Shown one piece after another: positions 35,580 to 59,575 of a stretch of 64,000 nucleotides of DNA; within the stretch, counting starts at the first letter, position 1, and each line of letters opens with the position of its first letter. Under the pieces are notes generated by a model. The model did no database searches, had not been told where the DNA came from, and saw nothing but the letters and a program-made list of their open reading frames with translations. The DNA is from an uncultured Candidatus Saccharibacteria bacterium (GTDB taxonomy: Bacteria > Patescibacteriota > Minisyncoccia > Phycocordibacterales > DATDWN01): NCBI GenBank assembly GCA_964468795.1, contig CAYXWL010000002.1, positions 5,459 through 69,458 on the forward strand, written 5' to 3'. Position numbers and translations under genes: made by a program.

Positions 35580-36221
35580 CTAATTACACCTTCTATTATT
35601 AGCATTTCGTATAAGGAGCAGATCATCCATTGTAACCTGGCCATCAAAATCAACGTCTGTGTTAAATAAGCAAATTGCAGAAGTAGATCCTAGGCACAGC
35701 TGAGCATAACGTGCGTCTGCTGTATTAACAGATCTGTCATTATTTACATCATAAAGAAGAATATTGCCAGGGTCATTTGCCATAACAGTGACCCTATTAG
35801 AGTATTCAAGCTTCGTTTTTAGCAAATAAGACTGGCCATCTGGACATGTCTTGTACATATACATTCGCCAATTAGCAGGATCATTTGAAGGGTCCTTTGG
35901 CAAGGCTGATATATACCTACCAGAGACTAATCTATTCAAGCTTATGCCAGTGGCCCAGTTGCTAGAGCTTGGGAGATCTGTACATTTGACTGTTCCTCCG
36001 CTAGTAAAGCATTCATTTGAGGCAGTAACTGGATAAGAATTGTGATCAGAATAATATAGTTCAAGTGCCTGCTGGAAAGACTTTAGATCAAGTTTTCGTG
36101 AGGCATCTCTCTGCCTGACTCTGGCAAGCGACAAGCTGTTGTAGACGATTGATGATAATAGGCTAATTATAGAAATAACGACCAGTAGCTCTATTAACGT
36201 AAATCCTTTTGAATTTTTCAC
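35580..36221 (-). CDS. Type IV pilin/pseudopilin (prepilin N-terminal methylation motif) with a C-terminal dockerin-like tandem repeat.
   Basis: KGFTLIELLVVISIISLL at the N-terminus. The C-terminus carries DVNNDRSVNTADARYAQL and DVDFDGQVTMDDLLLI, which are dockerin type I-like Ca-binding repeats. Confidence 0.75.
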   Translation of the reverse strand: MKNSKGFTLIELLVVISIISLLSSIVYNSLSLARVRQRDASRKLDLKSFQQALELYYSDHNSYPVTASNECFTSGGTVKCTDLPSSSNWATGISLNRLVSGRYISALPKDPSNDPANWRMYMYKTCPDGQSYLLKTKLEYSNRVTVMANDPGNILLYDVNNDRSVNTADARYAQLCLGSTSAICLFNTDVDFDGQVTMDDLLLIRNANNRRCN

Positions 36222-36366: not shown

Positions 36367-36440
36367 TGGGGGATCGTCTAACGGTAGGACATCAGGTTTT
36401 GGTCCTGAGTATCGGGGTTCGAGTCCCTGTCCCCCAGCCA
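36367..36440 (+). tRNA. tRNA-Gln (anticodon UUG), CCA-encoded.
   Basis: The cloverleaf was folded by hand: acceptor TGGGGGA/TCCCCCA, D stem GTCT/GGAC, anticodon stem TCAGG/CCTGA with loop TTTTGGT, T arm CGGGG-TTCGAGT-CCCTG. Confidence 0.85.
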
Positions 36441-36532
36441 GCTTGAGATAGTTTCGGACTCCGAGGAGGGTCGCGAAATGGCTCAAGTACCTATTCTGAC
36501 ATCGCATACCTGCTGAGCGCAGTATTCAAGAA

Positions 36533-36566
36533 AGAAAAAGCACCAAATTAGGTGCTTTTTCTTTCT
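36533..36566 (+). terminator. Rho-independent terminator after the tRNA.
   Basis: aaaaagcacc-aaatta-ggtgctttttc. Confidence 0.6.
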
Positions 36567-36609
36567 CTTCAAAAATCAAGCTAAAACTGGTATAGTTTAG
36601 ATATTATTT

Positions 36610-37104
36610 ATGAAAATAAAATCTCAGTTCGCTGATAAGGAAGGAAAATTAGCAGAAGTTACATATGAAGATGCTAATTCATTTGATCATCTTTTAGACA
36701 AGAAAGTGACGCAAACATATGGTGTCTGTTTTGTCGAAAATAAAATAGTTATTGTTTACAGTATAAAAGGTGGTGGTCACTGGATTCTCCCAGGCGGAAG
36801 TATTGAAAAAGGAGAAACTTTTGAAGAATGTCTAAAAAGAGAAATTCGAGAAGAATCAAACATGGAGGTTATTTCTTTTGCTCCAATTGGGTATCAGGAA
36901 GTTCGCTTTGATGGAAAGATATTTAATCAATTACGCTATATTTGTATAGTGAAGCCTTATGGAGATTTTATTTCTGATCCGGACGGAAGTATTACTGAAA
37001 TAAAACTAATTGATCCAAAGGAATACAAACAATATTTTGATTGGGGTGAGATCGGAGAAAGAATTATAGAAAGAGCGATAGAACTTAAGAATAAATTAGT
37101 ATAA
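36610..37104 (+). CDS. NUDIX hydrolase.
   Basis: Nudix box GGSIEKGETFEECLKREIREESNM. Confidence 0.8.
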   Translation: MKIKSQFADKEGKLAEVTYEDANSFDHLLDKKVTQTYGVCFVENKIVIVYSIKGGGHWILPGGSIEKGETFEECLKREIREESNMEVISFAPIGYQEVRFDGKIFNQLRYICIVKPYGDFISDPDGSITEIKLIDPKEYKQYFDWGEIGERIIERAIELKNKLV

Positions 37105-37111
37105 TAAAATC

Positions 37112-37615
37112 ATGGAAATAAAATCTCAATTCAAAAGTCGTAATGGAGAAATGATTGATTATGTATACAGAGAAGGCTCTGATCCAATAGAAGGATTAGA
37201 AGGAAAAATTCTACAGGCCGTTCATGGCTTTTGTTTTTATGGAGATAAGTTAGTTGTGGTATATGCAGGCGACAAAGGTTACTGGACATTTCCTGGTGGA
37301 GGCATAGAACCAGGAGAAACATGGCAAGAAGCCACAGTTAGAGAAGTAAAAGAAGAATCAAATATGAAAGTGCTACATCAAGAATTGATTGGTTATATAG
37401 ATGTATATGAAAAAGATAGAATCATACGACAAACCAGATCACTCTGCATTGTCGAACCATATGGAGATTTTGTTTCTGACCCAGATGTAGATATCACAGA
37501 GATCAAGCTGGTTGACCCTAAAGATTATGGACAGTATGTAAAATGGGGTGAAATTGGAGATCATATTGTTAAACGAGCTTTAGAAATACGGAGCAAGTAT
37601 AATGGATTAATATAA
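37112..37615 (+). CDS. NUDIX hydrolase, a tandem paralog of the previous gene.
   Basis: Nudix box GGGIEPGETWQEATVREVKEESNM. The two proteins are collinear and about 45% identical. Confidence 0.8.
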   Translation: MEIKSQFKSRNGEMIDYVYREGSDPIEGLEGKILQAVHGFCFYGDKLVVVYAGDKGYWTFPGGGIEPGETWQEATVREVKEESNMKVLHQELIGYIDVYEKDRIIRQTRSLCIVEPYGDFVSDPDVDITEIKLVDPKDYGQYVKWGEIGDHIVKRALEIRSKYNGLI

Positions 37616-37619
37616 TCAT

Positions 37620-38903
37620 ATGAAAAAACATATTATAATAGCAACATATGATGGAATAGGTACTCATTATTCAGGTGTTGGTACAATTGCAAAAAATATC
37701 ATATCTTCTCTAACTGATATATCAAATAGTTTAGATATGAAAGTTAGTATTGCTTATATTAATATTGATAAAACATCAAAAGTATTTAATAAAGACTGTT
37801 TTGAGGCAGCAAATAATCTTGTAAATAAAACTGGCGGGCAGATGATACCTTTGTGTAATTCTACTAAAGGTCAGAGTGAATGGGATATGTGGAGAAGTTT
37901 TAATGAATGGAATTTTTCTTGTGTATCTCTCGTTACAACCTTGAATTTGCTTCTAAAAGAGGATGAGGATAATGTCATTATTTTAAATGACACACCTTTT
38001 TTATTTTTTGCTAAGTATAGAGATTTAGTTACAGTTAAGAATTTGAAATGTTTTTATTTTCCACTCAGTACTGGTAAAAACCATGCTTTTGGTGATGAAG
38101 ATTGGAGAAATAATAGAATAAGAGTTGAAAAAAAATGTTTCGAACTAATTGAGTTAGAAAAGGATTCGAAAGTAATATCTCTTGGTAAAAAATTTGCAGA
38201 ACGCATGCACGAAGATTACGGACTTAATTTTAATGAAAAAGATTATTTACAAAATGGTTTATGTTTTGAAAAGTACAGGGATTTTCTTGATGAAAAATTT
38301 AATAACAAGGATCTTCTAAAATTTGGAATAGATATTAGTGAGGACAAAAAAATAATCTTTGCATGGGGGCGATGTTCTACTGCTAAAGGTTTTAAAGAAT
38401 TGGCACAGGCTTGGGTTCTTGCACACATAAGCCTACCAGATCATTTTTTAGTTTTGCAAATACCGAATAATTCTGGAGAGAATGAATATTTTCAAGAAGT
38501 AAAAAATATCTTAAGTGATATACCTAGAGTCATAATTATTGATGATTTTAATCCAAGTATTTGGAAAACAATCTTGAGAAATAAAAATACAGATGTTGTG
38601 TGTATACCTTCACTAATGGATCCATTCCCTCACACCTCAATTGAAGCAAAACTTTTTTCAAAGGATATGAATTATATAACATTGATTAGTGATGTTGATG
38701 GAGCAGTAGACGCCTTTGAAAAGGATGAGTGCTTTTATGTTGATCCCAGAAACAGTGATCAATTTTCTAAAAAGATAATTGAAGCAGTAAATCTAAATTA
38801 CTCTGAGAGGAGAAAACTAATTGAAAGAAGTGACAAAACTAGGGAAAAATTTAATTTTCATAAAATAATGTCCTCTTTCATCAAAGATAATCTTAATTGG
38901 TGA
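37620..38903 (+). CDS. Glycosyltransferase, GT-B fold (family 4/1-like).
   Basis: The C-terminal IPSLMDPFPHTSIEA matches the GT4 PS..E.FG...EA signature. Confidence 0.55.
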   Translation: MKKHIIIATYDGIGTHYSGVGTIAKNIISSLTDISNSLDMKVSIAYINIDKTSKVFNKDCFEAANNLVNKTGGQMIPLCNSTKGQSEWDMWRSFNEWNFSCVSLVTTLNLLLKEDEDNVIILNDTPFLFFAKYRDLVTVKNLKCFYFPLSTGKNHAFGDEDWRNNRIRVEKKCFELIELEKDSKVISLGKKFAERMHEDYGLNFNEKDYLQNGLCFEKYRDFLDEKFNNKDLLKFGIDISEDKKIIFAWGRCSTAKGFKELAQAWVLAHISLPDHFLVLQIPNNSGENEYFQEVKNILSDIPRVIIIDDFNPSIWKTILRNKNTDVVCIPSLMDPFPHTSIEAKLFSKDMNYITLISDVDGAVDAFEKDECFYVDPRNSDQFSKKIIEAVNLNYSERRKLIERSDKTREKFNFHKIMSSFIKDNLNW

Positions 38904-39643
38904 TGAAAATTAGACTTAATAATGTAACATTGCTGGGGATAGATTGTGTTAACCCAAAACAACTGTTAACTGCAATTAATATTTCTACAAGTAAGATAGA
39001 TTTTGAGTCTGTTAAGATTTTATCATCAGAGAATATTAATGATAGTAGACTAGTGAAAATTCCAAAGATATCCTCCATGCAAGAGTATTCGTTGTTTTGT
39101 TTAAAAGATTTGTATAAATATGTCGAAACAGATTTTGTTCTACTTATTCAATGGGACGGATTCATCCTAAATCCAGAAAGTTGGACTGATGAGTTTCTAA
39201 ATTACGACTACATTGGCGCACCCTGGGTCGTAAAAGATTGGTCTATAAATGATTTTGGATTTCCAGAAAAATTGAGGGGCACACGCGTTGTTGGTAATGG
39301 AGGTTTTTGTATTAGGAGTAGAAAATTTCTTGAAGTTTCGTCTAGGTTATATAAGTATAAAATATTCAAAACTTATCATCCAGAAGATATAGCGGTGAGT
39401 GTTTGGTATAGAGATTTATTTATTAAAGAAGGGATCAAGTTTGCTCCTGTAGAATTGGCTAGAAAGTTCGCTATTGAAGGAGGTGATGATGTGTACCACA
39501 ATCAATTTGGTTTTCATGGGTTTTACACAGATTTGGACAAATGGATGAATGAAAATAAGCAATATATGAATGTTGTTCAGTCTTATTATGATTTTAAAAA
39601 GAATATAAAAAAATATTGGAAGCCTGATGAAATAGTAATTTAA
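38897..39643 (+). CDS. DUF5672-like protein, commonly found in glycan-synthesis clusters.
   Basis: VVGNGGFCIRSRKFL motif. Assigned from memory. Confidence 0.4.
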   Translation: MVMKIRLNNVTLLGIDCVNPKQLLTAINISTSKIDFESVKILSSENINDSRLVKIPKISSMQEYSLFCLKDLYKYVETDFVLLIQWDGFILNPESWTDEFLNYDYIGAPWVVKDWSINDFGFPEKLRGTRVVGNGGFCIRSRKFLEVSSRLYKYKIFKTYHPEDIAVSVWYRDLFIKEGIKFAPVELARKFAIEGGDDVYHNQFGFHGFYTDLDKWMNENKQYMNVVQSYYDFKKNIKKYWKPDEIVI

Positions 39644-39712
39644 TCCAGTAAAACATTATTAGATAGAAAATCAAGAAATCTAAAAACATTTTTACTGTGT
39701 TATAATACTAAA

Positions 39713-40459
39713 ATGATTTTTCGGTGGTCCATTTGGGGTGATCATATTTCAAAAAATATAGAGCTACTGCAGTACAGCATAGCTTCTTTTCAGAAGTATT
39801 TTGGAAACAATAACCAATACATTATTTATACAGATAATATAGAGTTTGTTACAAAGTATTTTGATTCAAGTATAATTGTAAAACTCTTTTTACAAGACTC
39901 CGTATTTTTTTTAAAATCAAAAGCTACGTGGATGAAATGGTGTCCAAGTGTAAGGTTAGATTTAAGGGAAACGGAGGTATATGTAGATTCAGATGTTTTC
40001 CTTTTAAAATATCCGAAAGAAATTGATGGTTTTATAAATGATCCACAGTTGAAATTTGCAATAATGGATGAATTTAATGGGCAGTCCTGGCAACATGGTG
40101 CAATGGCACGTAAATCAACAAATCAAACTCCTTTTGTTAATGCTGGTTTTTTTATTCAGAAATCAGGTTGCGACATAACACAAGATTTACTAAGTGAATT
40201 TGAGTGGTGGAAGCAAAATGTGCCAACAAATGAACAAACTCATCATGATGAGCAAGGTGCATTAGCAGTAGCACTTACAGACCATTTAATTAATGGTGAA
40301 TTGTGTATTTTACCAAAAGATAAGTATGTGCTAATTGGTCCAAATGAAAATCAGGAAATAAAAAACCTCGAAAATATTACTATGTTTCATGCTGTATATC
40401 CGGATCATCCAGCCTTCTACAAATTCAAGAATTATCTTGATGATTTACTAAAAGAGTAA
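39713..40459 (+). CDS. Putative nucleotide-diphospho-sugar transferase with a DxD motif.
   Basis: YVDSDVFLL. Confidence 0.35.
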   Translation: MIFRWSIWGDHISKNIELLQYSIASFQKYFGNNNQYIIYTDNIEFVTKYFDSSIIVKLFLQDSVFFLKSKATWMKWCPSVRLDLRETEVYVDSDVFLLKYPKEIDGFINDPQLKFAIMDEFNGQSWQHGAMARKSTNQTPFVNAGFFIQKSGCDITQDLLSEFEWWKQNVPTNEQTHHDEQGALAVALTDHLINGELCILPKDKYVLIGPNENQEIKNLENITMFHAVYPDHPAFYKFKNYLDDLLKE

Positions 40460-40479
40460 GTTCAAAATTTTCGTTATAA

Positions 40480-42189
40480 ATGTTACAATCGAACAATATG
40501 GATCGTAGTAAAATTGCTATTCTCATGTCGGTGAGAAATGAGGAATCATATATTGATCTAAATATTTCCTATCATCTGGATTTAGGTTTTGATTACATAT
40601 TTATTGCTGATCATTGTTCAACTGATAAAACTCAAGAAATACTTAATTCATATAAAGATAATTCGAGAGTAGTTGTGATCCAGGAAACAAACCCAATTTT
40701 TGATCACGCAAGAATTGCAAATAATCTCTTGAGCTACGCAAAGTCAAAATATAGAATAGATTGGTTCATTTTTTTAGATGTTGATGAGTTTCTTTCAATA
40801 AAGGAAAAAGATGTGCATGACTTTGTTGATAGATTAGAAAAAAACAATATTCCATATGCAACTATTGGTTGGGCGAATGCTCTTTTTGATTATACTTTCA
40901 AAGATTATACTTGTTCTCCAACTCACCCTGTGGATACAACAAAATATTTTTATCCTTGGCCAGAAAAAACTTGGCAAGAGTATGGACATTTTAGAAAAGC
41001 AATTGTTAAAAATCACGACAAAATGGAAATAGTTGTTGGTGGTCATTATGTTCGTACGGAAAATAATCCAGATTTTTTTGGAGTATACAATTGGAACCCT
41101 TTCATTGTTCCTCCACATGAAGCTAAATTATTACATTTCGAATTTCGCGGGAAGGCTGATGAAATATATGGGAAATGGAAAAAACTTGCAGAATTTGAGA
41201 ATGACTCAACCTCAAGCCAGAATGCACCTTGGATGGAGAGGATCGAGACGATTAGAGGCTATGTTAAGGAATTTGAGGGTCATCTTGAGAAGATAAATAA
41301 AAGATGGTTTTCAGAGCACAGGACTTTTTGGGGGACAATCATTACTGACGATAAAATTAGTTACGATACTACCTTAGTTAAGTGGTATGGGAAATATTTG
41401 AAAAGAAAGATAGAGAATGGAGAAATTAGATCAATGTGTTTAGTGAGGAGGGGTCATTTGGGAGATGTTATTATGACTGAACCTGTTGCACGATTTTTAT
41501 CTAGCTATGCTAATGATATATCATTGGTAACTGAAATAAAGGAAGCTAGTAAAATATTTAATACTTACAGCAAGGTATACCCTTTTGATGATCTTGTTAC
41601 TGGTAAAATTCGTGCAGATGCTGTCATTAGACTTGTGCATGAAAGAAGTGACAATAAAAAAACATATATACAAGGATATATGGAGTCTATTGGTTTTTCT
41701 GATACAAAGATTAATGATATCCCGCTCATTTCCGATTCGTGGAAAAAAATTGTTGATGAAGAATACATTCTTATTGCACCTCATACAAGTTTGTGGGAAG
41801 AAAAAAAGAGGAATTGGGGTTATGATAAGTTTGTTGAGCTTAAACGTTTGATTGAAAAGGAATTTAACATTAAGTGTGTAATTCTAGAGAAAGACTATTC
41901 TTTTTCAGATATGATGTCACTCATTAAACATTGCAAATTTATTGTAGGAAATGATTCTGGACCAACGGTTATTGCACAGAGTTTTAATAAGAAATCATTT
42001 ATAATTTTCGGTGCAACTCACCCAAAGTATTTACATTTATCAGAAAATGTGGTATCAATATACGATAAAGATCGTCATAAACTTTGTTCTCATGTAAGTA
42101 GAGAAGAAGAAATGAGATGTTGTGAAGAGTTTTGTATGGATAGAATTAGGGTTCCTGATGTTTTGGATACAATCAAAATAAATATATGA
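40480..42189 (+). CDS. Bifunctional glycosyltransferase: an N-terminal GT-A (GT2/GT92-like) domain fused to a C-terminal GT9 heptosyltransferase-like domain.
   Basis: The N-terminus reads MSVRNEESYI...IADHCSTD. The C-terminal half carries MCLVRRGHLGDVIMTEPVARFL, the GT9 signature. Confidence 0.55.
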   Translation: MLQSNNMDRSKIAILMSVRNEESYIDLNISYHLDLGFDYIFIADHCSTDKTQEILNSYKDNSRVVVIQETNPIFDHARIANNLLSYAKSKYRIDWFIFLDVDEFLSIKEKDVHDFVDRLEKNNIPYATIGWANALFDYTFKDYTCSPTHPVDTTKYFYPWPEKTWQEYGHFRKAIVKNHDKMEIVVGGHYVRTENNPDFFGVYNWNPFIVPPHEAKLLHFEFRGKADEIYGKWKKLAEFENDSTSSQNAPWMERIETIRGYVKEFEGHLEKINKRWFSEHRTFWGTIITDDKISYDTTLVKWYGKYLKRKIENGEIRSMCLVRRGHLGDVIMTEPVARFLSSYANDISLVTEIKEASKIFNTYSKVYPFDDLVTGKIRADAVIRLVHERSDNKKTYIQGYMESIGFSDTKINDIPLISDSWKKIVDEEYILIAPHTSLWEEKKRNWGYDKFVELKRLIEKEFNIKCVILEKDYSFSDMMSLIKHCKFIVGNDSGPTVIAQSFNKKSFIIFGATHPKYLHLSENVVSIYDKDRHKLCSHVSREEEMRCCEEFCMDRIRVPDVLDTIKINI

Positions 42190-43205
42190 CTGACTCAGAA
42201 ATGAAAATAAAATTATCCTATATAACAGGTTTGAAGCCTGTGGTTTTAGATGAATTAAAAAAAATTAATTTTGAAATAATTAGTGAAGATACCGATTCAT
42301 TTTTTATCGAATTTTCAGAAAAGGTCATACAACAAGTAAAAAAGCTAAGGAGTGTAGCTCGTGTGTATCTAGTTATGCAAGGCGATACATATCACCCGAC
42401 ATATATTTCAAACCATAAGTCCGTTTTAGCTGGTCTTATTAATATGGTTATTGAGTACTATGACTTCAAGACATTCAAAATTAGCTGTGCCGGGTCTGAT
42501 TCGCCTGAAGTTAGAAGTATTGCAAGATATATACGAGATACCTATATACTGGAGGAAAATGACGAGGCAGACTTAAAGATACATATTATAAAACTAGATA
42601 GTGGTTGGGAGATGGGTGTACAAATAACCCCACGTCCTCTTTCAGTGAGAGATTATAGAGTTGTTAATATGAGTGGAGCAATGGATCCAACAATAGCATA
42701 TGCAGTAAATTCTTTTTGCAATCTTGATTCAGCACATTCGTATTTGAATATATTTTCGGGCAGTGCAACTTTATTAATTGAGGCGGGACAATGTTATCCA
42801 AACTTGAACAAATTACTTGGTTTTGATAATGAAAAGAAACATCTGTCCTTGTCTGTTCAAAACATTAAAAAGGCAGGTCTTATAGAAAGAGTTCAAGTGA
42901 AGGAATTGGATATTTTTGATAAGCCAGACCTAGGTAAATTTGATGCTATTGCCTCTGATTTACCTTTCGGTATGTCAATTTTAAAAGGTGAAGATCTAGA
43001 AAAACTATACGAAACTTTTATTCAATATTGTGAGGATGTGTTAAATACTACTGGTAGATTGGTTGTCTATACTAGCGAATATGAAATCATTGAACCTATT
43101 CTACTTAAGTCTAAATTCAAAATAATTCAGTCATTACAGTTAAAATTTATAACTAATGTAGATGCGTATTTAAGACCCAAGATAATTGTTTGTGAATTCA
43201 AATAA
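42186..43205 (+). CDS. THUMP-like / UPF0020 family SAM-dependent methyltransferase (N2-G/N6-A RNA methylase-like).
   Basis: FSGSATLLIEAG is the SAM motif I-like region; ASDLPFG is the D/NPPY-type catalytic motif. Confidence 0.55.
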   Translation: MTDSEMKIKLSYITGLKPVVLDELKKINFEIISEDTDSFFIEFSEKVIQQVKKLRSVARVYLVMQGDTYHPTYISNHKSVLAGLINMVIEYYDFKTFKISCAGSDSPEVRSIARYIRDTYILEENDEADLKIHIIKLDSGWEMGVQITPRPLSVRDYRVVNMSGAMDPTIAYAVNSFCNLDSAHSYLNIFSGSATLLIEAGQCYPNLNKLLGFDNEKKHLSLSVQNIKKAGLIERVQVKELDIFDKPDLGKFDAIASDLPFGMSILKGEDLEKLYETFIQYCEDVLNTTGRLVVYTSEYEIIEPILLKSKFKIIQSLQLKFITNVDAYLRPKIIVCEFK

Positions 43206-43207
43206 AT

Positions 43208-43960
43208 ATGGAAGAGGTTGATCTAAGAAAATTTTTAGAAAAATACAGAGATAGTAGGGTTGATTTTTACCGTTTCCCGGGAAATTATGGAGATTCACTA
43301 ATCTGGCATGGTACAAAAATACTACTAAATAAACTTAATATCATTGAAGATTACGTTGAAATATCTTCTCAAAAAAAGAATAACGTACTATTTATAGACG
43401 GTGGAGGTAATTTTGTTGATTATTATTCAGATGTAAAAAATTTCTTAATTGAGAAAAAAGATTTGTACAAGGAAATAGTCATCTTACCTCATACTATTTT
43501 TGGTAATAAGCAGATTGATATTCTAAATAGTTTGTCTGGTGATATTACAGTGTTTTGTCGTGAAAAAACTTCTTTCAAATTTGTAAAGGAAAATTTTACC
43601 AAAGGGAATATTTTTTTATGGCATGATTGTGCTTTCTATAATTCTTTTCCAAAATCAACATCTGGAACTGGGGCGCTTAATGCTTTTCGATCAGATATGG
43701 AATCTACTCTTAATGAATTACCCCATACAAATGAAGACATATCATATAATGGATATGCTACAAAACCTCTTGATGAGTTCATTAATATATTAAATAAATA
43801 CGAGCAAGTTAATACAGACAGGTTGCATGTAGCCATATGCGCTACACTTCTTGGAAAGCAGGTAAAATTATTTCCAAATTCGTATTATAAAAACAAGGCA
43901 GTTTTTGATTATTCTTTAAAAAAATTCCCTAATATAATTTTTGTTGATAAAATATCCTAA
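43208..43960 (+). CDS. Polysaccharide pyruvyl transferase family protein.
   Basis: An N-terminal GNYGD motif and a C-terminal DRLH motif. Confidence 0.55.
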   Translation: MEEVDLRKFLEKYRDSRVDFYRFPGNYGDSLIWHGTKILLNKLNIIEDYVEISSQKKNNVLFIDGGGNFVDYYSDVKNFLIEKKDLYKEIVILPHTIFGNKQIDILNSLSGDITVFCREKTSFKFVKENFTKGNIFLWHDCAFYNSFPKSTSGTGALNAFRSDMESTLNELPHTNEDISYNGYATKPLDEFINILNKYEQVNTDRLHVAICATLLGKQVKLFPNSYYKNKAVFDYSLKKFPNIIFVDKIS

Positions 43961-45276
43961 ATACTTACTATTTTATTAGCTAAGGTGATCTTACTCCTTA
44001 TGCATGAAAGTAATTCTCTCTTCTCAATATTAGAAGCTTCTTTGAGTACATACTTTGCATAATTTCTGATATCTATATCTTTAACCTCGATTTTTTCTTT
44101 AGTTCCAAGAATGACTCTCTGGAATTTTTTCACTCTTTCTACTTCAGCTTTAATTTTTTCTTTTATACCTATCTCATTAAGATCAATTTTATCCATAAGT
44201 AATACAAATTGTTCAATCAAATCTTCCTCATTTATGTACCCAGACTTACAATGCTTATCTTTAAATTTTGTGCATCCATAATAAACATAACGATGTACAT
44301 TTCCATTCTTCTGTTTCTTAAACTTCTCGTCAGCAGTAATACCAGACCCACATAAACCACAAGTCATAAGTTTGGTAAAAGCAAACTCTTTATCTTCAAC
44401 TCGAATAACTTGTCCGTTTATCTGAGTTTGAACTTGATCAAATAATTCTTTGGTTATCAGAGGTTCGTGTATGCCTTTGTACCAAAGACCGCTTTTCTTC
44501 GGAAACTCAAAAGTTCCGTAATAAAAATCACTTTTTAAAATTAAATATATATTACTCAGTGTTAAGCCTTTATTTCCATTTGGAGTTTTAAAATTGAGTT
44601 CAAATTTCAGCCAATGGTATAGTTTCTTTCCTGTCCATTTCTCGTAAGCAACTTTCTCAAACATTTTTCTAATGATGTGGCCTCGTTCTGGATCAATGTA
44701 CACATGACCTTTACGATCAGCCCTCATTTCATTTAAATAGCCCATAGGGGCTGGTGCAGGCCATAGACCCATCTCACATCTAGTTCTCAGTCCACGCTTA
44801 ACATTGATACTTTTATTGTCGTTCTCAAGTTTTGCATGAGATCACAAAATCATGAGTAGAAACTTTTCGTTTGGTGAATTCTGGAATGACTGACCATAAG
44901 TTCTAATTTGATGTAGTTTCTTTTCGTCCATTAAATCCACAAGAGTTCCAAGGTCACCAGCATTTCTACTTAAACGGTCTGGTGCCCATGTCAAAATACC
45001 TGTGTATCTTCCAGAATTGAGATCACGGATAAGTTCATTAAACACAGGTCTTTGTCCTGATGCTTTGGCAGAATAAGATTCACGTCTAATATCAATTATT
45101 TCAAGATTTTCTCTTTCAGCGATTTGTAGCATTTCTTTTACTTGAGAATCAATTGAGAGCGCTTGTTTCTCGTCAGATTCAGTTGATTTTCTAGCATAAA
45201 GACAATATCTGACTTTATCTACTGGAACTGCATCTGGTGCCCATATTTGAGCCCCTCTGTTTATTACTGCTTCCAT
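43957..45276 (-). pseudogene. Large serine recombinase interrupted by one in-frame TGA at about 44842-44844, the position where the intact paralog has a conserved Cys. The ORF track shows it as 43957..44772 plus 44842..45276.
   Basis: The N-terminal resolvase domain carries YARKSTE (catalytic Ser). The C-terminal recombinase and zinc-ribbon domains are also present. The sequence is collinear with 57072..58394 across the stop. Confidence 0.75.
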
Positions 45277-45318: not shown

Positions 45319-45894
45319 TTAAGTATCTTTGTCCACATCTGGATCCATCATTTTATCAACCTCTCCCTCTTTCTCGGTATCGATTTTCCACTCTATATAT
45401 GAGGCATTAAATATATCTATTAGATTTTGTTCATCATTACAGAACACCTTAATAAATGGTTCAAATATTTGGTAAGCAATATCTGCCTCAAAGTTTTTCT
45501 CTAAATCGTAAATAATTGAAAACATAGTTTCAAAGTTGTGACCTTTCTTAACTGGTTTACTCACTATGTCAGAATCTCTAGTTAATAGAGAACTATAATG
45601 TTTACCTTTTTCTTTCTGCATATATCTAGAATCATTATGAGACAACCAAAAGGTTGCAGACTTATGTTCTCCTCTTTGAACTCCTTTTATAATTACAGTT
45701 TCAGCAGATCCATTAATTGCTTCTCGTCCAACAAATAAAGCCATGACAACTTTTTTGTTAAATGTTGGGTGTCGCATAATCCATCTATAGAATGTGCTGT
45801 GGTCTATTCCAACTTTATTACAGACATACCGAACATTAGGAATTACTTCCAATTCCTTAACAATTCTTTTGGTTATGTCATCTCCATATCGCAT
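45319..45894 (-). CDS. HTH protein, phage terminase small subunit-like.
   Basis: The N-terminal HTH (GIDHSTFYRWIMRHPTFNKK) is homologous to 61088..61537. Confidence 0.45.
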   Translation of the reverse strand: MRYGDDITKRIVKELEVIPNVRYVCNKVGIDHSTFYRWIMRHPTFNKKVVMALFVGREAINGSAETVIIKGVQRGEHKSATFWLSHNDSRYMQKEKGKHYSSLLTRDSDIVSKPVKKGHNFETMFSIIYDLEKNFEADIAYQIFEPFIKVFCNDEQNLIDIFNASYIEWKIDTEKEGEVDKMMDPDVDKDT

Positions 45895-46601: not shown

Positions 46602-46603
46602 AT

Positions 46604-47880
46604 CAATTTTCTCCTTACCAACAACTTTCTCAAAGATAGTATCACTTGTAGAACAAGCACAAAAAGCTAAAGCTCCAACTCAAGAATTTATCGATAGTTT
46701 CGCAAAATATTACACACCATCAGTTGTTGTTATTGCTGCAATTATTGGTATAGGAATACCACTCCTTACTGGAGATGTATTCACTCTTTGGCTTGAGCGT
46801 GCAATAACACTTCTTGTTATTGCGTGTCCTTGTGCACTTGTTATCTCTACACCTGTAGCGATTACTTCAGCAATAGGTGGAGCATCAAAAAAAGGAATTC
46901 TAATGAAAGGAGGTAAGCATCTTGAAGAACTTAAAAATGTTCGGGTAATTGCTTTCGATAAAACTGGAACTTTAACTCTTGGAGAACCTTACATTTCTGA
47001 TGTTATTGCTTTTAATGGCTTTACTGAAAAGGATGTTCTTGAGGATGCTGCAGGTGTTGAACAATTTTCTTCTCACCCTCTATCTAAAAGTATATTAGCT
47101 TTTGCAAAAGAAAAAGGTATTAGTCCTCACACAATGCAAAATTATCAAAATATTTCTGGTAAAGGAGGAAAGGCGACCTGTATGGTATGTGACGATCTCG
47201 AACATTGTGTAGGTAATTTAAAACTTATGGATGCTCATGATATTTCAACTGAAGAAATACTTGAGAAAACAGAAAAATTTGAACGAGAAGGAAAAACGGT
47301 GGTTTTGGTAAGTGAAGACAAAAAAATAATGGGCGCATTGGCAATTTCAGATAGAATTCGCAATGAAGCCAAAGATACTATCAGTAAACTTAACTCTCTT
47401 GGGGTACAAACAGTAATGCTTACTGGAGATAACCAACATGCCGCTTCGTTTGTTGCAGAAAGTTTGGGAATTAAAGAAGTTTACGGATCACTTCTTCCAG
47501 ATGAAAAGGTTCAAAAAATTCAATTGCTTAAAGATAAGCATAATTCAGTGGCAATGGTTGGAGATGGTGTAAATGATGCTCCATCTTTGGCTCTATCAAA
47601 TGTTGGTATTGCCATGGGTGCAAGAGGATCAGATGTTGCGATTGAAACTGCGGATGTTGCTCTAATGAATGACAATATTTTGAACATTCCAGCAATGGTG
47701 GAGTTAAGCAAAAAGACAATAAAAACTGTTAAGCAGAATGTAACGGCAGCTCTTGTGGTAAAAGTTGCTTTTGTTGTCCTTGCAGTGTTCGGTATCTCCA
47801 ATCTTGGTATCGCAATTGCTGCCGACACCGGAGTGGCGATACTCGTTATCTTAAATGGATTAAGGCTATTTAAGGCCTAA
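46604..47880 (+). pseudogene. 5'-truncated heavy-metal P-type ATPase (ZntA/CadA-like), C-terminal two-thirds only.
   Basis: The in-frame translation from about 46604 contains CPC (IACPCAL), DKTGTLT, GDGVNDAP and a C-terminal ILNGLRL. The N-terminal HMA and TM1-4 are absent. The fragment abuts the truncated methyltransferase start. Confidence 0.7.
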
Positions 47881-47941: not shown

Positions 47942-49135
47942 ATGAAATCAATCATAATGGTTGGCCTGACAGGAATTCTTACATTTACCGGACTGGGAGT
48001 AGGCCTTATACAAGACAAAAATCAATCAACAACGCCAGAAAAAGTATCAGTAAAATCAGTCAGTGACTTACCGGAAGGCGTAGTAAAAGAATACAAAGTA
48101 GAGAAGGGCGATACATTCGCTGAGGTTATGCTTGCACAAGGCGTATCTTATAATGACATTAATGCTATTCTCGATTCTGCAAAAAACGTATTTGATTTTA
48201 CTACTGTTGGTGCTGGTAAAGTTCTAAAATTTGTTTTTGTGAACAAAGCTTTTGCTGCAATGGAATACCCACTTAACAGTGATACTGTGGTTCACGTAAA
48301 AAAAGAAGGAGATGGATTTAAGGTGGCTGAAGAGGATATTCAGTACGACATAACTCAAGTTACTGCTCAGGGTACTATTACTGACTCACTATTTATGTCC
48401 GCAAAAGATGCGGGTGTGGATGATAAGGTTATTTTAAAAATGGCAGAAGCCTTTTCGTGGGATATAGACTTTGCAACTGATATTCAGTCCGGTGATAGCT
48501 TTAAGGTTGTTTATGAAAAACGGTCATTTGACGGTAAGCCAGCTGGAGCTGGAAAACTTCTAGCAGCTGAGTTTACGAATAAAGGGAAAACTCAGACTCT
48601 GTATCGTTACGAAGATGCTTTTTATGATGAGAGTGGTAAGTCTGTGATGAGACAGTTCTTACGTTCTCCACTTAGTTATTCATATATTAGTTCGGGGTAT
48701 GAGGGTTCTAGAGTTAACCCTGTTACTAGAAAAGTTGAGGCTCACTTTGCTATAGATTATGCAGCTCCGTTAGGAACACCAATCGTTGCTTCTGCTAAGG
48801 GTACTGTTTCTTATGCTACTTCAAAAGGTGGACTTGGTATTACAGTCGAAATTAAACATGGAGGTTCTTATCTTACTCAATACGCACATATGTCTAGAAT
48901 TGCTAAGGGTATAAAAAATGGTGTTGAAGTTAATCAGGGTGACATAATCGGATACGTAGGATCAACTGGTGTTTCTAGCGGTCCTCATCTTCAATATGCG
49001 ATGTATAAGGGAAATACAAAAGTAAATCCGCTCAATGAAGAGTCTTCTAGAGAAATATCTATCGAGGAAAAAGATCGAGCTGACTTTGAGGGTACAACAA
49101 ATAAACTTAAGTTGGTGCTGGGCGCTAAAAATTAA
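47942..49135 (+). CDS. M23 family metallopeptidase with an N-terminal secretion anchor.
   Basis: HFAIDYAAPLGTP...GSTGVSSGPHLQY are the M23 HxxxD / HxH motifs. Confidence 0.8.
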   Translation: MKSIIMVGLTGILTFTGLGVGLIQDKNQSTTPEKVSVKSVSDLPEGVVKEYKVEKGDTFAEVMLAQGVSYNDINAILDSAKNVFDFTTVGAGKVLKFVFVNKAFAAMEYPLNSDTVVHVKKEGDGFKVAEEDIQYDITQVTAQGTITDSLFMSAKDAGVDDKVILKMAEAFSWDIDFATDIQSGDSFKVVYEKRSFDGKPAGAGKLLAAEFTNKGKTQTLYRYEDAFYDESGKSVMRQFLRSPLSYSYISSGYEGSRVNPVTRKVEAHFAIDYAAPLGTPIVASAKGTVSYATSKGGLGITVEIKHGGSYLTQYAHMSRIAKGIKNGVEVNQGDIIGYVGSTGVSSGPHLQYAMYKGNTKVNPLNEESSREISIEEKDRADFEGTTNKLKLVLGAKN

Positions 49136-50795: not shown

Positions 50796-51284
50796 AAATC
50801 AATCACCAAACAAGTAACTCCTCATCATGCCATTGACTACACCACAAGTGCAGGAACTCCTGTTATTGCTACAGCAGATGGAAAAGTTACGCTGGCTGGA
50901 TCAAAAGGTGGACTTGGAATAACTGTAGAGTTAAAGCATGGAAGTTATCTCACTCAATATGCTCATCTTTCAAAAATTGCAAAGGATGTAAAGAATGGAG
51001 CCAGTATCTTGCAAGGAGACGTCATCGGATATGTGGGATCGACCGGCATCTCAACAGGACCTCATTTGCAGTATGTAATGTTTGAAAATGGAAATCCGAT
51101 AAATCCTCTTACCGCTGATTTTCCACGTGAGAATTCATTGTCTGATTCAGAAATCGACAATTTCACTACGACAAAAAAACAAACTCCAGGATATCTTGAA
51201 GTAAACAAAGTTTTACACATATCAAATTTGACTATATACCCCCCTAGGGGTATATTTGCTGTATATGAAATATATGGATATTAA
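50796..51284 (+). pseudogene. 5'-truncated M23 peptidase fragment, a paralog of 47942..49135.
   Basis: The translation in the frame of ORF 51009..51284, from 50796, gives HHAIDYTTSAGTPVIA...GSTGISTGPHLQY. About 70% identity to the M23 catalytic domain above. It begins 6 nt after the rodA stop. Confidence 0.5.
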
Positions 51285-51540
51285 AAATAAGGCAAAAGTT
51301 CTCCATCGACTCAAGTTGATTGAGGGACAAATAAGAGGTCTGCAAAAGATGGTCGAGAACGATACCTACTGTATTGATGTCATCACACAAACATCAGCAG
51401 TAAAGCAAGGGCTTTCTAATGTGGAAGATTTGCTTCTTGAAAACCATCTTGATCATTGTGTGCATCACCAAATGCATTCTGGTCAGACCAAAAAAGCTAA
51501 GGATGAGATTATAAAGGTTTATAAGTTGAAGCGAAAATAA
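51274..51540 (+). CDS. csoR: CsoR/RcnR family metal-sensing repressor.
   Basis: RLKLIEGQIRGLQKMVE...C..V..Q..A...GL. The Cys/His ligand positions are present. Confidence 0.8.
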   Translation: MDIKNKAKVLHRLKLIEGQIRGLQKMVENDTYCIDVITQTSAVKQGLSNVEDLLLENHLDHCVHHQMHSGQTKKAKDEIIKVYKLKRK

Positions 51541-51547
51541 TTTATAT

Positions 51548-53872
51548 ATGACTACAACAAATATATACAAAGTGAAAGGAATGCATTGTGCCTCATGTGC
51601 CAGTATTATTGAAAAGACGTTTAAGAAGACAGAAGGGGTGCATTCTGCAGAAGTAAACTATGGGACTGAGACAGCCAAGGTTGCCTTCGATGAATCTAAG
51701 ACAACTCCACATCATCTCTCTAAAAAAATAGAACCTCTGGGATATTCATTAGCTCTAAATCAAAAATCAGGTCATTCTCATAGTGCTCAATCTGCTGAAG
51801 AAATGGGAATGTCAGCAGATGAACATGCGGCACATTTAGGTCTAAACCAATCAAAAGAAGAGAAACTTGCTGAGGTTGCAGATATGAGGGTAAAAGTTCT
51901 TTCCGCTATTCCACTCTCAATTTTTGCAGCTTTCGTTATGGGTTGGGATATTTTGGCTCAATATAAAGCTGTGCCTGTAATGAGTTACACGCTTAAAGAA
52001 TTTTTTCATCACCTATTGCCGATTTTTGCCACATACACTCTTTTTGTTGTAGGTAAACCTTATCTAATGGGATTTTATAGATTTTTAAGATACGGAAAAG
52101 CCAATATGGATACATTGATAGGCATTGGAACAGTTGCTGCATTTTTATATAGTTTTGCAGTTACAGCTTTTGAGGAGGTACTTCGACCTTTTATTAATGT
52201 TGATTATCAATACTACGATGTAACGATTGTGGTTGTTACATTTATTGCACTTGGTAAATACCTTGAAGCTAGATCAAAAATAAAAACTGGTGATGCTATT
52301 GAAAAGCTTCTAAATCTTCAAGCAAAGACGGCTCTTGTTGTTCGCGATGGAAAAGAAGTAGAAATTGGAGTTGGCGAAGTCGAACATGGAGATTTAATAA
52401 TTGTAAAACCTGGTGCGAGAATTCCGGTAGATGGTGTGATAACCGAAGGATCCTCCTTTGTCGATGAGTCCATGGTTACAGGTGAGCCGATGCCAGCGCA
52501 GAAAAAGATTGGCGATAATGTTGTTTCAGGAACAATTAATACAAGTGGCTCATTTACATTCAAGGCGACCAAAGTTGGTTCAGAAACTCTATTGGCTCAA
52601 ATAATCAAGATGGTTGAAGATGCTCAAGGTAGTAGAGCACCAATCCAAGCTCTAGCAGATAAGATTTCGGCCATTTTTGTTCCGATTACTCTCGTCATTG
52701 CCTTTCTCACGCTCGGAGTATGGTTACTTATCGGCACTAACTCACTAGGTTTTTCACAAGCACTATCTTTCGGTCTAGTTTCTTTTGTGGGAGTTCTCGT
52801 CATCGCGTGTCCGTGTGCTTTAGGACTCGCTACACCTACAGCGATTATTGTTGGAGTTGGCAAGGGGGCAAAAGAAGGAATTTTAATAAAAGATGCAGCA
52901 ACACTAGAGAAGTTACATAAAGTAGATACTGTCATTGTAGACAAAACAGGGACAATAACTATTGGCAAACCAACTCTTGTAGATATTGAAAATATGTCCG
53001 ATCTTAATAATGAGCAGTTTGTATCAATTATTGCTTCACTTGAGAAAAAATCTGAACATCCTATTGCTCATGCGGTAGTGAATTATGCTCATGAAAAGAA
53101 TCTAAATATTGAGGATGTTTCAGACTTTGAAGGTATTCAAGGTAAGGGGTTAAAAGGAAGAATTAAAGAAACAGAATACTTTGTTGGAAATGTAAAACTT
53201 ATTTCTGATTTAGGGATATCATTTGATACATCAAAAATTGAGCAGTTTACTCTACAAGGTAAAACTCCTGTTATTCTTTCTACCAGTGAAAAGATTTTGG
53301 GATTTGTGATGGTTGCTGATGAAATTAAGAACGAATCAAAACAAGCTGTAGCCGATCTTCATAAGCTTGGAATTAAAGTCGTAATGCTTACTGGTGATGA
53401 TGAAAAAGCCGCAAAATATATTGCTTCACTAGTCGGAATTGATGAGGTGATCGCACATGTATTGCCACAAGATAAATTAGCAAAAATACAAGAGTTACAG
53501 ACTCGAGGGAAAATTGTAGCTATGGCTGGAGATGGTGTGAATGATGCTCCAGCATTAGCACAAGCAGATGTGGGTATTGCTATGGGTACAGGTACTGATG
53601 TTGCAATAGAATCTGCAGGAATTACCCTTCTTGGTGGAGATATCTCTAAGTTGGTAAAGGCCATTAAGTTATCGAAAATAACAATGAGAGGTATTAAGCA
53701 GAACCTATTTTGGGCATTTATCTACAACGTTATTGGTATTCCACTTGCTACTGGTATTTTTTATCCAGTTTTTGGTTGGCTTCTTAATCCTGTGTTTGCT
53801 GGTTTTGCTATGGCAATGTCATCTGTATCAGTAGTATCAAATTCTCTTCGAATCAAAGCGAAAAAAATATGA
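51548..53872 (+). CDS. copA: Copper-translocating P1B-type ATPase.
   Basis: N-terminal HMA (GMHCASCA), then CPC, DKTGT, GDGVNDAP and MSSVSVVSNSLR. Length is 774 aa. Confidence 0.9.
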   Translation: MTTTNIYKVKGMHCASCASIIEKTFKKTEGVHSAEVNYGTETAKVAFDESKTTPHHLSKKIEPLGYSLALNQKSGHSHSAQSAEEMGMSADEHAAHLGLNQSKEEKLAEVADMRVKVLSAIPLSIFAAFVMGWDILAQYKAVPVMSYTLKEFFHHLLPIFATYTLFVVGKPYLMGFYRFLRYGKANMDTLIGIGTVAAFLYSFAVTAFEEVLRPFINVDYQYYDVTIVVVTFIALGKYLEARSKIKTGDAIEKLLNLQAKTALVVRDGKEVEIGVGEVEHGDLIIVKPGARIPVDGVITEGSSFVDESMVTGEPMPAQKKIGDNVVSGTINTSGSFTFKATKVGSETLLAQIIKMVEDAQGSRAPIQALADKISAIFVPITLVIAFLTLGVWLLIGTNSLGFSQALSFGLVSFVGVLVIACPCALGLATPTAIIVGVGKGAKEGILIKDAATLEKLHKVDTVIVDKTGTITIGKPTLVDIENMSDLNNEQFVSIIASLEKKSEHPIAHAVVNYAHEKNLNIEDVSDFEGIQGKGLKGRIKETEYFVGNVKLISDLGISFDTSKIEQFTLQGKTPVILSTSEKILGFVMVADEIKNESKQAVADLHKLGIKVVMLTGDDEKAAKYIASLVGIDEVIAHVLPQDKLAKIQELQTRGKIVAMAGDGVNDAPALAQADVGIAMGTGTDVAIESAGITLLGGDISKLVKAIKLSKITMRGIKQNLFWAFIYNVIGIPLATGIFYPVFGWLLNPVFAGFAMAMSSVSVVSNSLRIKAKKI

Positions 53873-54506: not shown

Positions 54507-54528
54507 TTAATAAACTAACTACACAAAT

Positions 54529-55173: not shown

Positions 55174-55200
55174 ATTTATTAAAATAATAATATAAATAAT

Positions 55201-55422: not shown

Positions 55423-55423
55423 A

Positions 55424-55615: not shown

Positions 55616-55633
55616 AATAATCTCGTAAATATT

Positions 55634-56653: not shown

Positions 56654-56669
56654 TTTTACAAATCAATCT

Positions 56670-59568: not shown

Positions 59569-59575
59569 TTATTCA

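Follow-up and report, generated by a model that had tools for sequence, protein, structure and literature searches.

A block of eight genes follows tRNA-Gln

We analysed a stretch of 64,000 nucleotides (the window; all positions below refer to it unless a locus is named) from an uncultured Candidatus Saccharibacteria bacterium, corresponding to positions 5,459–69,458 of contig CAYXWL010000002.1 in assembly GCA_964468795.1. The subject is a block of tightly packed genes, hereafter the cassette, next to the only tRNA gene of the locus, a tRNA-Gln(UUG) recognized by ARAGORN and by the Rfam tRNA model (57.5 bits). Between 27.5 and 36.2 kb, left of the tRNA, all genes that encode 100 amino acids or more lie on the minus strand; among them are those for an ABC transporter, tyrosyl-tRNA synthetase (TyrRS), one EamA and one DUF1761 protein, and a type IV pilin that ends in a dockerin. 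To the right, after a conserved 85-nt trailer and a terminator that separate the tRNA from the first cassette gene (starting at 36,610), eight plus-strand open reading frames (ORFs) succeed each other up to 43,960 with intergenic gaps of −4 to +69 nt (Table 1). The flip in polarity directly 3′ of the tRNA, pointed out in a first-pass annotation of the window, is real. That annotation spoke of nine genes; eight is the correct number, and its own list names eight products. Pfam reproduces its calls of two NUDIX hydrolases, a GT4 glycosyltransferase, a DUF5672 protein, a GT-A::GT9 fusion, a UPF0020 protein and a pyruvyl transferase. Membrane segments are absent from all eight proteins (maximum KD19 ≤ 1.31). 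Judged by its sequence relatives, the block is one copy of a widespread, horizontally exchanged accessory cassette of the Parcubacteria.

The pilin gene (35,580–36,221, minus strand) encodes an N_methyl motif, a T2SSG-like region and a C-terminal type I dockerin, an unusual combination. The sequence suggests a pilus that could dock cohesin-bearing partners.

Table 1. Features of the tRNA-Gln locus, with window coordinates and the basis of each assignment.
Feature	Position	Strand	Basis
tRNA-Gln(UUG); left edge of the low-GC3 tract	36367..36440	+	ARAGORN, Rfam, GC3 step
Conserved ∼85-nt trailer directly 3′ of tRNA-Gln	36441..36528	+	∼92% identical to L009, also in L023
Terminator-like hairpin closing the tRNA unit	36529..36566	+	19-nt arms, 95% complementary; compensatory changes in L009
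NUDIX hydrolase 1, accessory	36610..37104	+	PF00293 E 4.8e-12; 84–87% identical to L009 and L023 copies
NUDIX hydrolase 2, tandem paralogue	37112..37615	+	PF00293 E 1.1e-11; paralogue repeats
GT4 (GT-B) glycosyltransferase, first core gene	37620..38903	+	Glycos_transf_1 PF00534 E 1.9e-10; in all 9 intact cassettes
DUF5672 protein, accessory	38897..39643	+	PF18922 E 6.7e-21; alternative start 38903 (246 aa) in other gene callers
GT8-like GT-A glycosyltransferase, 248 aa, core	39713..40459	+	AlphaFold2 fold; invariant DSD
GT2-like GT-A :: GT9-like GT-B fusion, 569 aa, core	40480..42189	+	Glyco_tranf_2_4 PF13704 E 2.1e-15 and Glyco_transf_9 PF01075 E 3.2e-10
NFLD–THUMP–Rossmann methyltransferase, Trm14/TrmN/RlmL type	42186..43205	+	UPF0020 E 2.3e-24; 4-nt overlap with fusion gene
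WbbZ-type pyruvyltransferase-family protein, last cassette gene	43208..43960	+	PS_pyruv_trans PF04230 E 9.3e-17; WbbZ 6x1l E 7.7e-40
Large serine recombinase 1	43957..45276	-	Resolvase, Recombinase and Zn_ribbon_recom domains; in-frame TGA 44842–44844 in this window only
Helix–turn–helix (HTH) protein, small-terminase-like, of decayed prophage-like module	45319..45894	-	Weak Sf6_terminase and HTH matches
N6/N4 DNA methylase without N-terminal ∼189 residues	45897..46601	-	PF01555 E 3.4e-25
Deletion scar, truncated DNA methylase joined to truncated P-type ATPase	46602..46620	.	Both genes lose their 5′ parts here
3′ fragment of P1B-type ATPase gene, residues ∼347–769	46621..47880	+	tblastn with CopA, 37% identity over 347–769; Hydrolase domain only; GC3 0.21

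The cassette in other Parcubacteria

The fusion protein has more than 120 homologues at 62–85% identity, and nearly all of those with a source name come from Patescibacteria or Parcubacteria. Our census of the cassette covers 10 independent contexts including the window, nine of them intact and one, L023, internally deleted. The core genes keep the order GT4, GT8-like, GT2::GT9, THUMP methyltransferase, and the 4-nt overlap between the fusion and methyltransferase genes is found in all 10 contexts. A pyruvyltransferase follows this methyltransferase core in eight; in four a carbamoyltransferase lies between the two. The accessory genes comprise NUDIX (7/10), DUF4254 (5/10), SAM_HAT in front of GT4 (3/10), APH-type kinases (1/10) and a sulfotransferase (1/10), while DUF5672 occurs only in the window and in L009, the cassette of Parcubacteria bacterium C7867-006. 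HD_4, NTP_transf_2 and His_Phos_1 genes are further accessories in relatives, and cassettes often lie near defence genes. The cassette of L024 is surrounded by genes for WecG, a GT4 protein, UDP-glucose dehydrogenase and an epimerase. tRNA-Gln adjoins three of the 10 cassettes, all in related lineages, and pilus genes are close to two: the pilin gene in the window and, in L026, a PilM operon 0.7 kb away.

Two homologues, P0106 and P0107, are natural triple fusions of the GT8-like protein to GT2::GT9 and thus attest directly to a joint action of these transferases. A 78-aa ORF of L023 consists of residues 1–8 of the GT4 protein and, in the same frame, the C-terminal ∼70 residues of the GT9 domain; all transferases are gone in this clean deletion, and both NUDIX genes and the methyltransferase gene are kept. 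The transferase block is therefore dispensable.

We found no description of the cassette in the literature searched on DUF5672, DUF4254 and Patescibacteria glycan clusters. A phage origin was considered and rejected: PHROGs returned only generic NUDIX and methylase matches, and scans of IMG/VR, including one with an alignment of the fusion protein, returned nothing. Nor is the cassette a known anti-phage defence system, since the PADLOC matches were generic (NUDIX to PDC-S07, methyltransferase domain to mad2).

The transferases and the WbbZ-like protein

The 248-aa protein, called a 'DxD transferase' in the first-pass annotation, has no relative by sequence in Pfam or the PDB. Its AlphaFold2 model (predicted local distance difference test, pLDDT, 83.8) bears the call out: it has a GT-A fold nearest to GT8-type retaining transferases, with Foldseek matches to the LARGE1 xylosyltransferase domain, the UGGT catalytic domain, XXYLT1 and LgtC (TMq 0.5–0.63), and its DSD motif is invariant in 31 homologues.

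In the fusion protein the GT9-like domain ends in a Cys/His cluster, C-x-H...CC-x3-C (42,085–42,140), in which C536, H538, C547, C548 and C552 are invariant among 24 homologues. The cluster is probably a metal-binding site, and it may resemble the metal site of autotransporter heptosyltransferases. A PDB profile search with the fusion protein matched WaaF alone, and weakly (E 0.02); it retrieved no protein heptosyltransferase and no solved relative with such a cluster.

The last cassette protein scores 62.3 bits against PF04230 (cut-off 25.3), and its match to the WbbZ structure spans residues 8–247. Experiments have established WbbZ as the enzyme that adds the terminal pyruvate to the Klebsiella O1b antigen; the glycan on which it acts is assembled at the cytoplasmic face (PMC10629545).

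An RNA-type methyltransferase that also occurs without the cassette

The methyltransferase scores 86.6 bits against the UPF0020 model of Pfam (cut-off 22.3). The THUMP domain that the first-pass annotation had assigned to it escapes detection by sequence, as Pfam THUMP matches none of seven orthologues even at E 10, but is recovered by structure. The AlphaFold2 model (pLDDT 87.4) superposes over its full length on TrmN (TM-score 0.75/0.76), Trm14 (0.70) and RlmL (0.72), so that the enzyme has the complete N-terminal ferredoxin-like domain (NFLD)–THUMP–Rossmann architecture of RNA guanine-N2 methyltransferases. Motif IV, (D/N)(L/P)P(Y/H/F)G in Trm14, TrmN (tRNA m2G6) and RlmL, is invariably DLPFG here, the length is similar to theirs, and the best solved sequence match is Trm14 (3tlj, E 6.8e-13). 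The cassette enzyme differs from these proteins in its low identity (∼19%), in lacking a Pfam THUMP match and in its place within a glycosyltransferase operon. Since its score against the Trm14_Arch model (71.3 bits) falls far under the curated cut-off of 280, it is a distant member of the Trm14 architecture, not an identified Trm14. Trm14/TrmN are far closer to it than is EmtA (E 8e-20 versus 3e-7), and its match to AviRa is also weak.

Three contexts were reached through the methyltransferase rather than the fusion protein (L023, L025 and L027), and all are without the transferase block. In L025 the methyltransferase gene stands alone among the genes for RNase III and RNase R, rpsP, khpA, trmD and truB; in L027 it is arranged back-to-back with rlmH, and efp and an aminoacyl-tRNA synthetase gene are nearby. 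In a neighbour-joining tree both of these orphans nest inside the cassette-linked methyltransferases. Linked and orphan enzymes are thus one orthologous group whose linkage to the cassette was gained or lost repeatedly. The orphans have a nearly host-like GC content at third codon positions (GC3), and the window enzyme is 87% identical to that of L023 and 58% to that of L009. Because the methyltransferase persists without the transferases, it has most likely retained RNA methylation as a function apart from the glycan.

Downstream of the orphan in L027 (10,025–15,156 of that locus) lie genes for an APH-type kinase, an aminotransferase, a 295-aa protein, a NUDIX protein and an ATP-grasp-like protein; APH and NUDIX are also found among the accessories of the cassette.

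Base composition

Total GC falls from ∼0.39 to ∼0.31 at the cassette (0.36–0.44 over 1–36 kb, 0.28–0.34 over 37–44 kb). The difference is sharper in GC3, which is 0.232 ± 0.026 for the eight cassette genes versus 0.379 ± 0.036 for 40 genes on the left (Mann–Whitney p = 5e-9), and the step falls exactly at the tRNA-Gln unit. With respect to the genes left of the tRNA, the cassette is indeed the AT-rich block that the first-pass annotation described. The right end that it gave, at the recombinase (43,960), does not hold. Low GC3 runs on through the recombinase module (0.26–0.30), the ATPase fragment (0.21) and the genes for an M23 peptidase (0.26), FtsW (0.24) and CopA (0.24) to at least 54.5 kb, a tract of at least 18 kb, and from there to the window end GC3 is 0.29–0.35.

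In all nine hosts examined, the total GC of the cassette is 1–13 points (median ∼6) under that of its flanks. Low total GC as proof of recent arrival is thereby undermined, and the argument holds for synonymous sites only. At codon positions 1 and 2 in the window, GC is 0.36 in the cassette versus 0.40; this offset is an effect of amino acid composition, and it explains the gap in total GC where GC3 shows no step, as in L009. As a control, GC3 shows a step in L024 and none in L009 or L023, whose core genes have a GC3 of 0.17–0.30. The step at synonymous sites in the window is therefore real evidence of a foreign origin, with a donor like L009 or L023.

Near 36 kb gene orientation and GC skew both change sign, with negative skew and mostly minus-strand genes on the left, positive skew and plus-strand genes on the right. 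Skew tracks gene orientation again at 57–63 kb, so a coding-strand bias may account for the pattern and a replication origin is not required.

The tRNA-Gln site in related genomes

Loci for comparison were found through cassette proteins, and no relative closer than L009 was found. L009 is moderately close to the window: core proteins are 43–75% identical, and a block from a sigma-70 to an S41-peptidase gene is collinear with 19–24.6 kb of the window. The first-pass annotation had raised the possibility that relatives carry a different downstream neighbour of tRNA-Gln, and L009 does. There tRNA-Gln, its trailer and the terminator lead directly into CsoR–CopA–DUF305 genes, and the cassette is inverted and sits beyond the tRNA, on its opposite flank. 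Nucleotide homology between the two genomes stops after the terminator and restarts at 51,225, in the CsoR operator. Some 14.7 kb thus separate the tRNA unit from CsoR in the window and are missing between the two in L009.

The corresponding site in L023 is more elaborate. An intact tRNA-Gln is accompanied by a second copy of the tRNA 3′ end with ∼35 nt of trailer, then by a 3.5-kb Mrr/DUF2726 islet, a third, degenerate tRNA copy, the full trailer, the terminator and the NUDIX genes. From these nested tRNA 3′-end repeats we conclude that integrative elements use the tRNA-Gln site in this clade, as a hotspot. The repeats flank a different islet, however; the L023 cassette, beyond the distal repeat, is the tRNA's pre-existing neighbour.

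The relation to L023 also carries a signal of exchange. Window and L023 DNA are 84–85% identical over the trailer, the NUDIX genes and the methyltransferase gene, compared with 68% for the ABC transporter, the only alignable core gene. Likewise, the closest TyrRS among species-representative genomes is 55% identical, versus 79–85% for the fusion protein in other Patescibacteria. As the cassette is more similar than the core genes, and as L023 has lost the transferases, the cassette is accessory and exchanged. Two scans for an empty site were unproductive: among species-representative genomes the best TyrRS match was that of 55%, with no tRNA or common gene order detected, and a scan of metagenome contigs with the M23 peptidase gave one irrelevant match.

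The idea of a horizontally acquired island at tRNA-Gln, advanced by the first-pass annotation, is in part supported. The GC3 step, the change of neighbour in L009, the repeats in L023 and the exchange signal speak for it. Its right boundary is different from that proposed, and the attR-like direct repeat that was expected does not exist, as a repeat search and blastn-short over the whole window both failed to find any further copy of the tRNA 3′ end at a level exceeding chance. The locus resembles tRNA-linked genomic islands in starting after a tRNA unit, in its deviant composition, in its absence from that position in L009 and in the repeats at the L023 site. It differs from them in having no tyrosine integrase (none among the genes scanned over 28–63 kb, where the recombinases, at 43,957–45,276 and 57,072–58,394, are of the serine type only), in having no tRNA repeat, in the intervening trailer and terminator, and in being a mosaic of modules at least 18 kb long.

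The trailer itself lies at ∼3040–3128 (minus strand) in L009 and at 5049–5084 and 8588–8680 in L023, and is ∼92% identical between genomes despite differing tRNA anticodon stems. About 35 nt at its start belong to the att-like repeat of L023. We considered the trailer as a structured RNA, or as an RNA target of the cassette, and rejected both: it has no Rfam family, no covariation (its 5′ hairpin is invariant) and an ordinary folding energy (fold z = −1.3), and it travels with tRNA-Gln rather than with the cassette.

The adjoining recombinase module

The ORFs at 43,957–44,772 and 44,842–45,276 are one serine recombinase gene split by a single in-frame TGA. Three other assemblies of the strain (L001–L003, 99.98% identical) have TGT at this site and an intact 439-aa recombinase, and an intact paralogue in the window (57,072–58,394, 65–76% identical) has a Cys codon at the same position. 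The 'decayed serine recombinase' of the first-pass annotation is thus accurate for the window and not for the other assemblies, although the module to which the gene belongs is itself a decayed remnant. Two of the only three mismatches between the window and L001–L003 fall within 7 nt at 44,842–44,850 (TGT to TGA; Gln to His); either a local error of sequencing or assembly or a true inactivating variant may lie behind them.

The stop codon of this recombinase gene overlaps that of the WbbZ-like gene, and the stop of the second recombinase gene is flush with that of a cupredoxin gene (57,071). Since in both elements the recombinase stop abuts a convergent gene stop, we infer a boundary of the element at this point, which suggests that the cassette is a neighbour of the recombinase, not its cargo. 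That the recombinase carries the cassette is unsupported: the stops overlap, and the module repeats the 57–63 kb element in truncated form.

In that fuller prophage- or satellite-like element (57,072–62,768) the second serine recombinase gene is accompanied by a LOOT RNA (RF03000, 58,551–58,667, 79.6 bits) and by genes for a protein of 282 aa, a terminase-large-like ATPase, an HTH protein and a DNA methylase of 427 aa (61,485–62,768). The HTH proteins of the two elements are homologous (E 2e-14). The 234-aa methylase of the remnant aligns only to residues 190–419 of its 427-aa paralogue, at 50% identity, and its truncation point abuts a P1B-ATPase fragment that starts at about residue 347; the 5′ half of the ATPase gene is nowhere in the window. 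Because methylase and ATPase are both cut at this one point, the junction at 46,602–46,620 is a deletion scar. It forms the right end of the module, and attL and attR sites with both halves of the target locus were not found. The module resembles serine-recombinase prophages and satellites in combining a large serine recombinase, a small-terminase-like HTH protein and a DNA methylase, all homologous to the 57–63 kb element. Unlike them it is a remnant, with a truncated methylase, no terminase-large gene and, in the window, a nonsense codon. As architecture the island is unremarkable: its tRNA hotspot, the decayed prophage-like remnants and the deletion scars all reflect ordinary plasticity of genomes.

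A possible envelope glycoconjugate

From the gene content, folds, conservation, linkage, composition, synteny and decay scars we infer a chemistry, an acceptor and a route of acquisition, as follows. The GT4, GT8-like and GT2-like::GT9-like proteins and, here, the DUF5672 protein would add four or five sugars stepwise to an acceptor that faces the cytoplasm, and the WbbZ-type enzyme would place a pyruvate ketal at the end of the chain. Further decoration would come, in other genomes, from carbamoyl-, sulfo- and phospho-transferases. The NUDIX pair would probably hydrolyse a nucleotide-linked donor or by-product. The product would be a lipid-anchored or wall-linked envelope glycoconjugate of a bacterium without lipopolysaccharide (LPS). 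In this genome the cassette is the first module of a tract of foreign composition that starts at the tRNA-Gln unit and continues with the decayed prophage-like remnant. We hold this explanation as a whole, that is a mobile operon for an envelope glycoconjugate with a separable methyltransferase in a tRNA-Gln tract, with middling confidence. Confidence in the product itself, a short decorated envelope glycoconjugate on a cytoplasm-facing acceptor, falls slightly short of even.

The proposal of an envelope glycoconjugate is made because the enzyme repertoire and the lack of a flippase or polymerase match assembly of the LPS-core type. Like the LPS core (waa/wap) clusters, the cassette encodes a GT9-type enzyme, a GT4 enzyme of the WaaG/WapG type and a GT8-type retaining GT-A enzyme; WaaO, WaaJ and WaaR of E. 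coli belong to GT8. The cassettes of relatives add kinases of the APH/WaaP kind and a NodU-type carbamoyltransferase (compare WapO/PA5005). Both systems consist of soluble or peripheral enzymes that would act in sequence at the cytoplasmic face, with no flippase or polymerase. The Pseudomonas core cluster unites WaaC/WaaF and WapG with the heptose kinases WaaP, WapP and WapQ and with a carbamoyltransferase, WapO (PMC8005017). waa clusters lack the cassette's GT2::GT9 fusion, coupled THUMP methyltransferase and pyruvyltransferase. The Patescibacteria host is a further difference, as is the absence of Kdo (3-deoxy-d-manno-octulosonate) transferase and lipid A genes from the window and the related loci and of a ligase from the window. 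Patescibacteria are not known to have LPS. The likeness to WbbZ of Klebsiella pneumoniae O1b lies in a full-length match (250 versus 272 aa) and in a place beside glycosyltransferases for a cytoplasmic glycan; the cassette protein differs in having no ABC exporter partner and in that its role is a prediction from sequence.

Several points weigh against this proposal. The sample comprises 10 cassette contexts and three methyltransferase-sampled contexts only, and is biased to long contigs. The GT9 match is partial, covering profile positions 155–225 of 247, and the sole solved relative, WaaF, is a weak one. Among solved structures, RppH-type RNA pyrophosphohydrolases come nearest to the NUDIX proteins, also by a weak match (NUDIX 2 to 4jzu, E 2e-8). 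In the 10 contexts the neighbourhood of the cassette has no conserved gene for an initiating phosphoglycosyl transferase, a lipid-carrier enzyme, a flippase, an ABC exporter or a ligase; a MatE gene is present in one context and small EamA genes in two. Genes for sugar-nucleotide synthesis are absent from the window. Finally, an envelope product leaves the operon coupling of the methyltransferase unexplained.

The novelty lies in the combination: a phylum without LPS has a transferase set like that of the LPS core, and this set is coupled in every cassette to an RNA-type methyltransferase. Patescibacteria (candidate phyla radiation, CPR) are mostly uncultured and the chemistry of their envelope is largely unknown; a conserved, mobile, all-soluble cassette of the LPS-core kind is a defined gene set with which a CPR surface glycoconjugate could be probed.

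Alternative functions and origins

Coupling to a Trm14/TrmN-type RNA methyltransferase is unusual for a glycan operon and, if functional, points to RNA glycosylation or to a glycoside-plus-immunity pair. In either case the transferases would act on or against RNA, by building a sugar chain on a tRNA or rRNA nucleoside (a bacterial glyco-RNA) or by making a glycoside that targets translation, to which the methyltransferase gives immunity. The coupling in 10/10 cassettes, the persistence of the methyltransferase where the transferases were lost and the likeness of the NUDIX pair to RppH are all compatible with such readings, which jointly we consider unlikely, though not negligible. The first-pass annotation had also offered a nucleotide- or RNA-modification system. 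The constant presence of the THUMP methyltransferase lends this some support; nothing further is in its favour, and the repertoire looks like glycan assembly.

The glycoside version supposes a soluble decorated oligosaccharide or glycosylated nucleoside that hits translation, with the THUMP methyltransferase shielding the cell's own rRNA or tRNA, in the manner of the resistance methyltransferases of bacteria that produce oligosaccharide antibiotics. The methyltransferase is kept where the transferases are deleted (L023) or absent (L025, L027), and orphans nested in the cassette-linked clade are the pattern expected for orphan immunity genes. This version further draws on the weak matches to the EmtA and AviRa resistance methyltransferases, on the accessory, exchanged nature of the cassette and its frequent proximity to defence genes, and on the carbamoyltransferase, APH, sulfotransferase and SAM_HAT genes of relatives, which are typical of natural-product tailoring. 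However, no exporter is conserved, sugar-tailoring and aglycone genes are lacking, and Trm14/TrmN are far closer than EmtA (see above). The orphans, moreover, sit in ordinary neighbourhoods of translation genes with nearly host-like GC3, which fits a housekeeping RNA methyltransferase equally well. We regard a glycoside with immunity as improbable.

Protein glycosylation would have the soluble transferases modify a protein in the cytoplasm before its export or assembly, be it the adjacent dockerin-bearing pilin, another pilin or an adhesin. The pilin gene (N_methyl and Dockerin) lies directly left of the tRNA, a PilM operon is close to the L026 cassette, every enzyme is soluble, and the GT9 domain has its invariant Cys/His cluster. 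Glycosyltransferase genes beside a pilin gene are also what is seen in the pilin O-glycosylation islands of Pseudomonas (PilO/TfpW) and Neisseria (pgl). Those islands, though, have an oligosaccharyltransferase, a flippase and lipid-carrier enzymes. The cassette has none of these, and searches of it with Pfam and NCBIfam found no PglL/PilO/TfpW-type oligosaccharyltransferase or membrane protein. Pilus genes occur near only two of the 10 cassettes, in genomes where pilin genes are numerous, and the PDB profile search led to WaaF and not to a protein heptosyltransferase. The pilin gene has host-like GC3 (0.34) and the cassette does not, so the two were not acquired together. The pilin-glycosylation island that the first-pass annotation raised as one possibility is accordingly poorly supported, and protein glycosylation in general has a low probability.

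RNA glyco-modification is the less probable of the two RNA-directed schemes, and we rate it as quite improbable. THUMP would recruit tRNA or rRNA, the transferases would build sugars on a modified nucleoside, and the NUDIX proteins would act on RNA ends or nucleotide intermediates. The modelled Trm14/TrmN architecture, the obligatory translational coupling to the fusion transferase, the RppH-type enzymes as nearest solved NUDIX relatives, the cytoplasmic location of all enzymes and the nucleotide-flavoured accessories of relatives (HD_4, SAM_HAT, NTP_transf_2, His_Phos_1) agree with it. Yet there is no precedent for RNA as the target of four or five transferase domains and of pyruvylation and carbamoylation as well, enzymes of the WbbZ and LPS-core types act on glycans, orphan loci keep the methyltransferase without transferases, and tRNA-Gln adjoins only three cassettes, all of related lineages.

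As to origin, the block could be no island at all but a vertically inherited native operon, AT-rich through protein composition alone. Cassette GC is indeed under that of the flanks in all nine hosts, partly via codon positions 1 and 2, and in L009 the cassette proteins diverge like the core (57–70% versus 43–75%) with a GC3 that matches the host. The window, however, has its step at synonymous sites (0.23 versus 0.38), nucleotide identity with L023 is higher in the cassette than in the core gene, the position of the cassette relative to the tRNA varies between related genomes, and the cassette is lost or decayed in others. A native operon is therefore very improbable. An assembly chimera, in which two Parcubacteria populations were joined at the conserved tRNA-Gln and trailer, is hardly credible and was rejected: although the step coincides with a ∼190-nt stretch that is 84–92% identical between lineages, this stretch is neither identical nor as long as a read pair, and the junction recurs at 99.98% identity in contigs of three further ENA assembly records, of which L001 and L002 span it with several kb on either side and L003, starting at 36,383, runs into it from the right.

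Other features of the window

A perfect 46-nt direct repeat lies in intergenic DNA at 25,321–25,366 and 25,409–25,454. It contains nested inverted repeats (aatctggctttgttcc / ggaacaaagccagatt) and has no Rfam match at the gathering threshold.

An M23 peptidase gene fragment (50,901–51,109) upstream of CsoR is 70% identical in nucleotide sequence to the C-terminal part of the full M23 gene (48,821–49,032), a remnant of rearrangement. The copper-resistance module that follows (51,225–57,071) consists of CsoR, with a palindromic operator at ∼51,236–51,255, CopA, a 206-aa protein, DUF305, HMA-DsbD_2 and cupredoxin genes. Its CopA (GC3 0.24) is 84% identical to that of L009, compared with 43–75% for core proteins, and the copper-resistance module has probably been exchanged horizontally as well.

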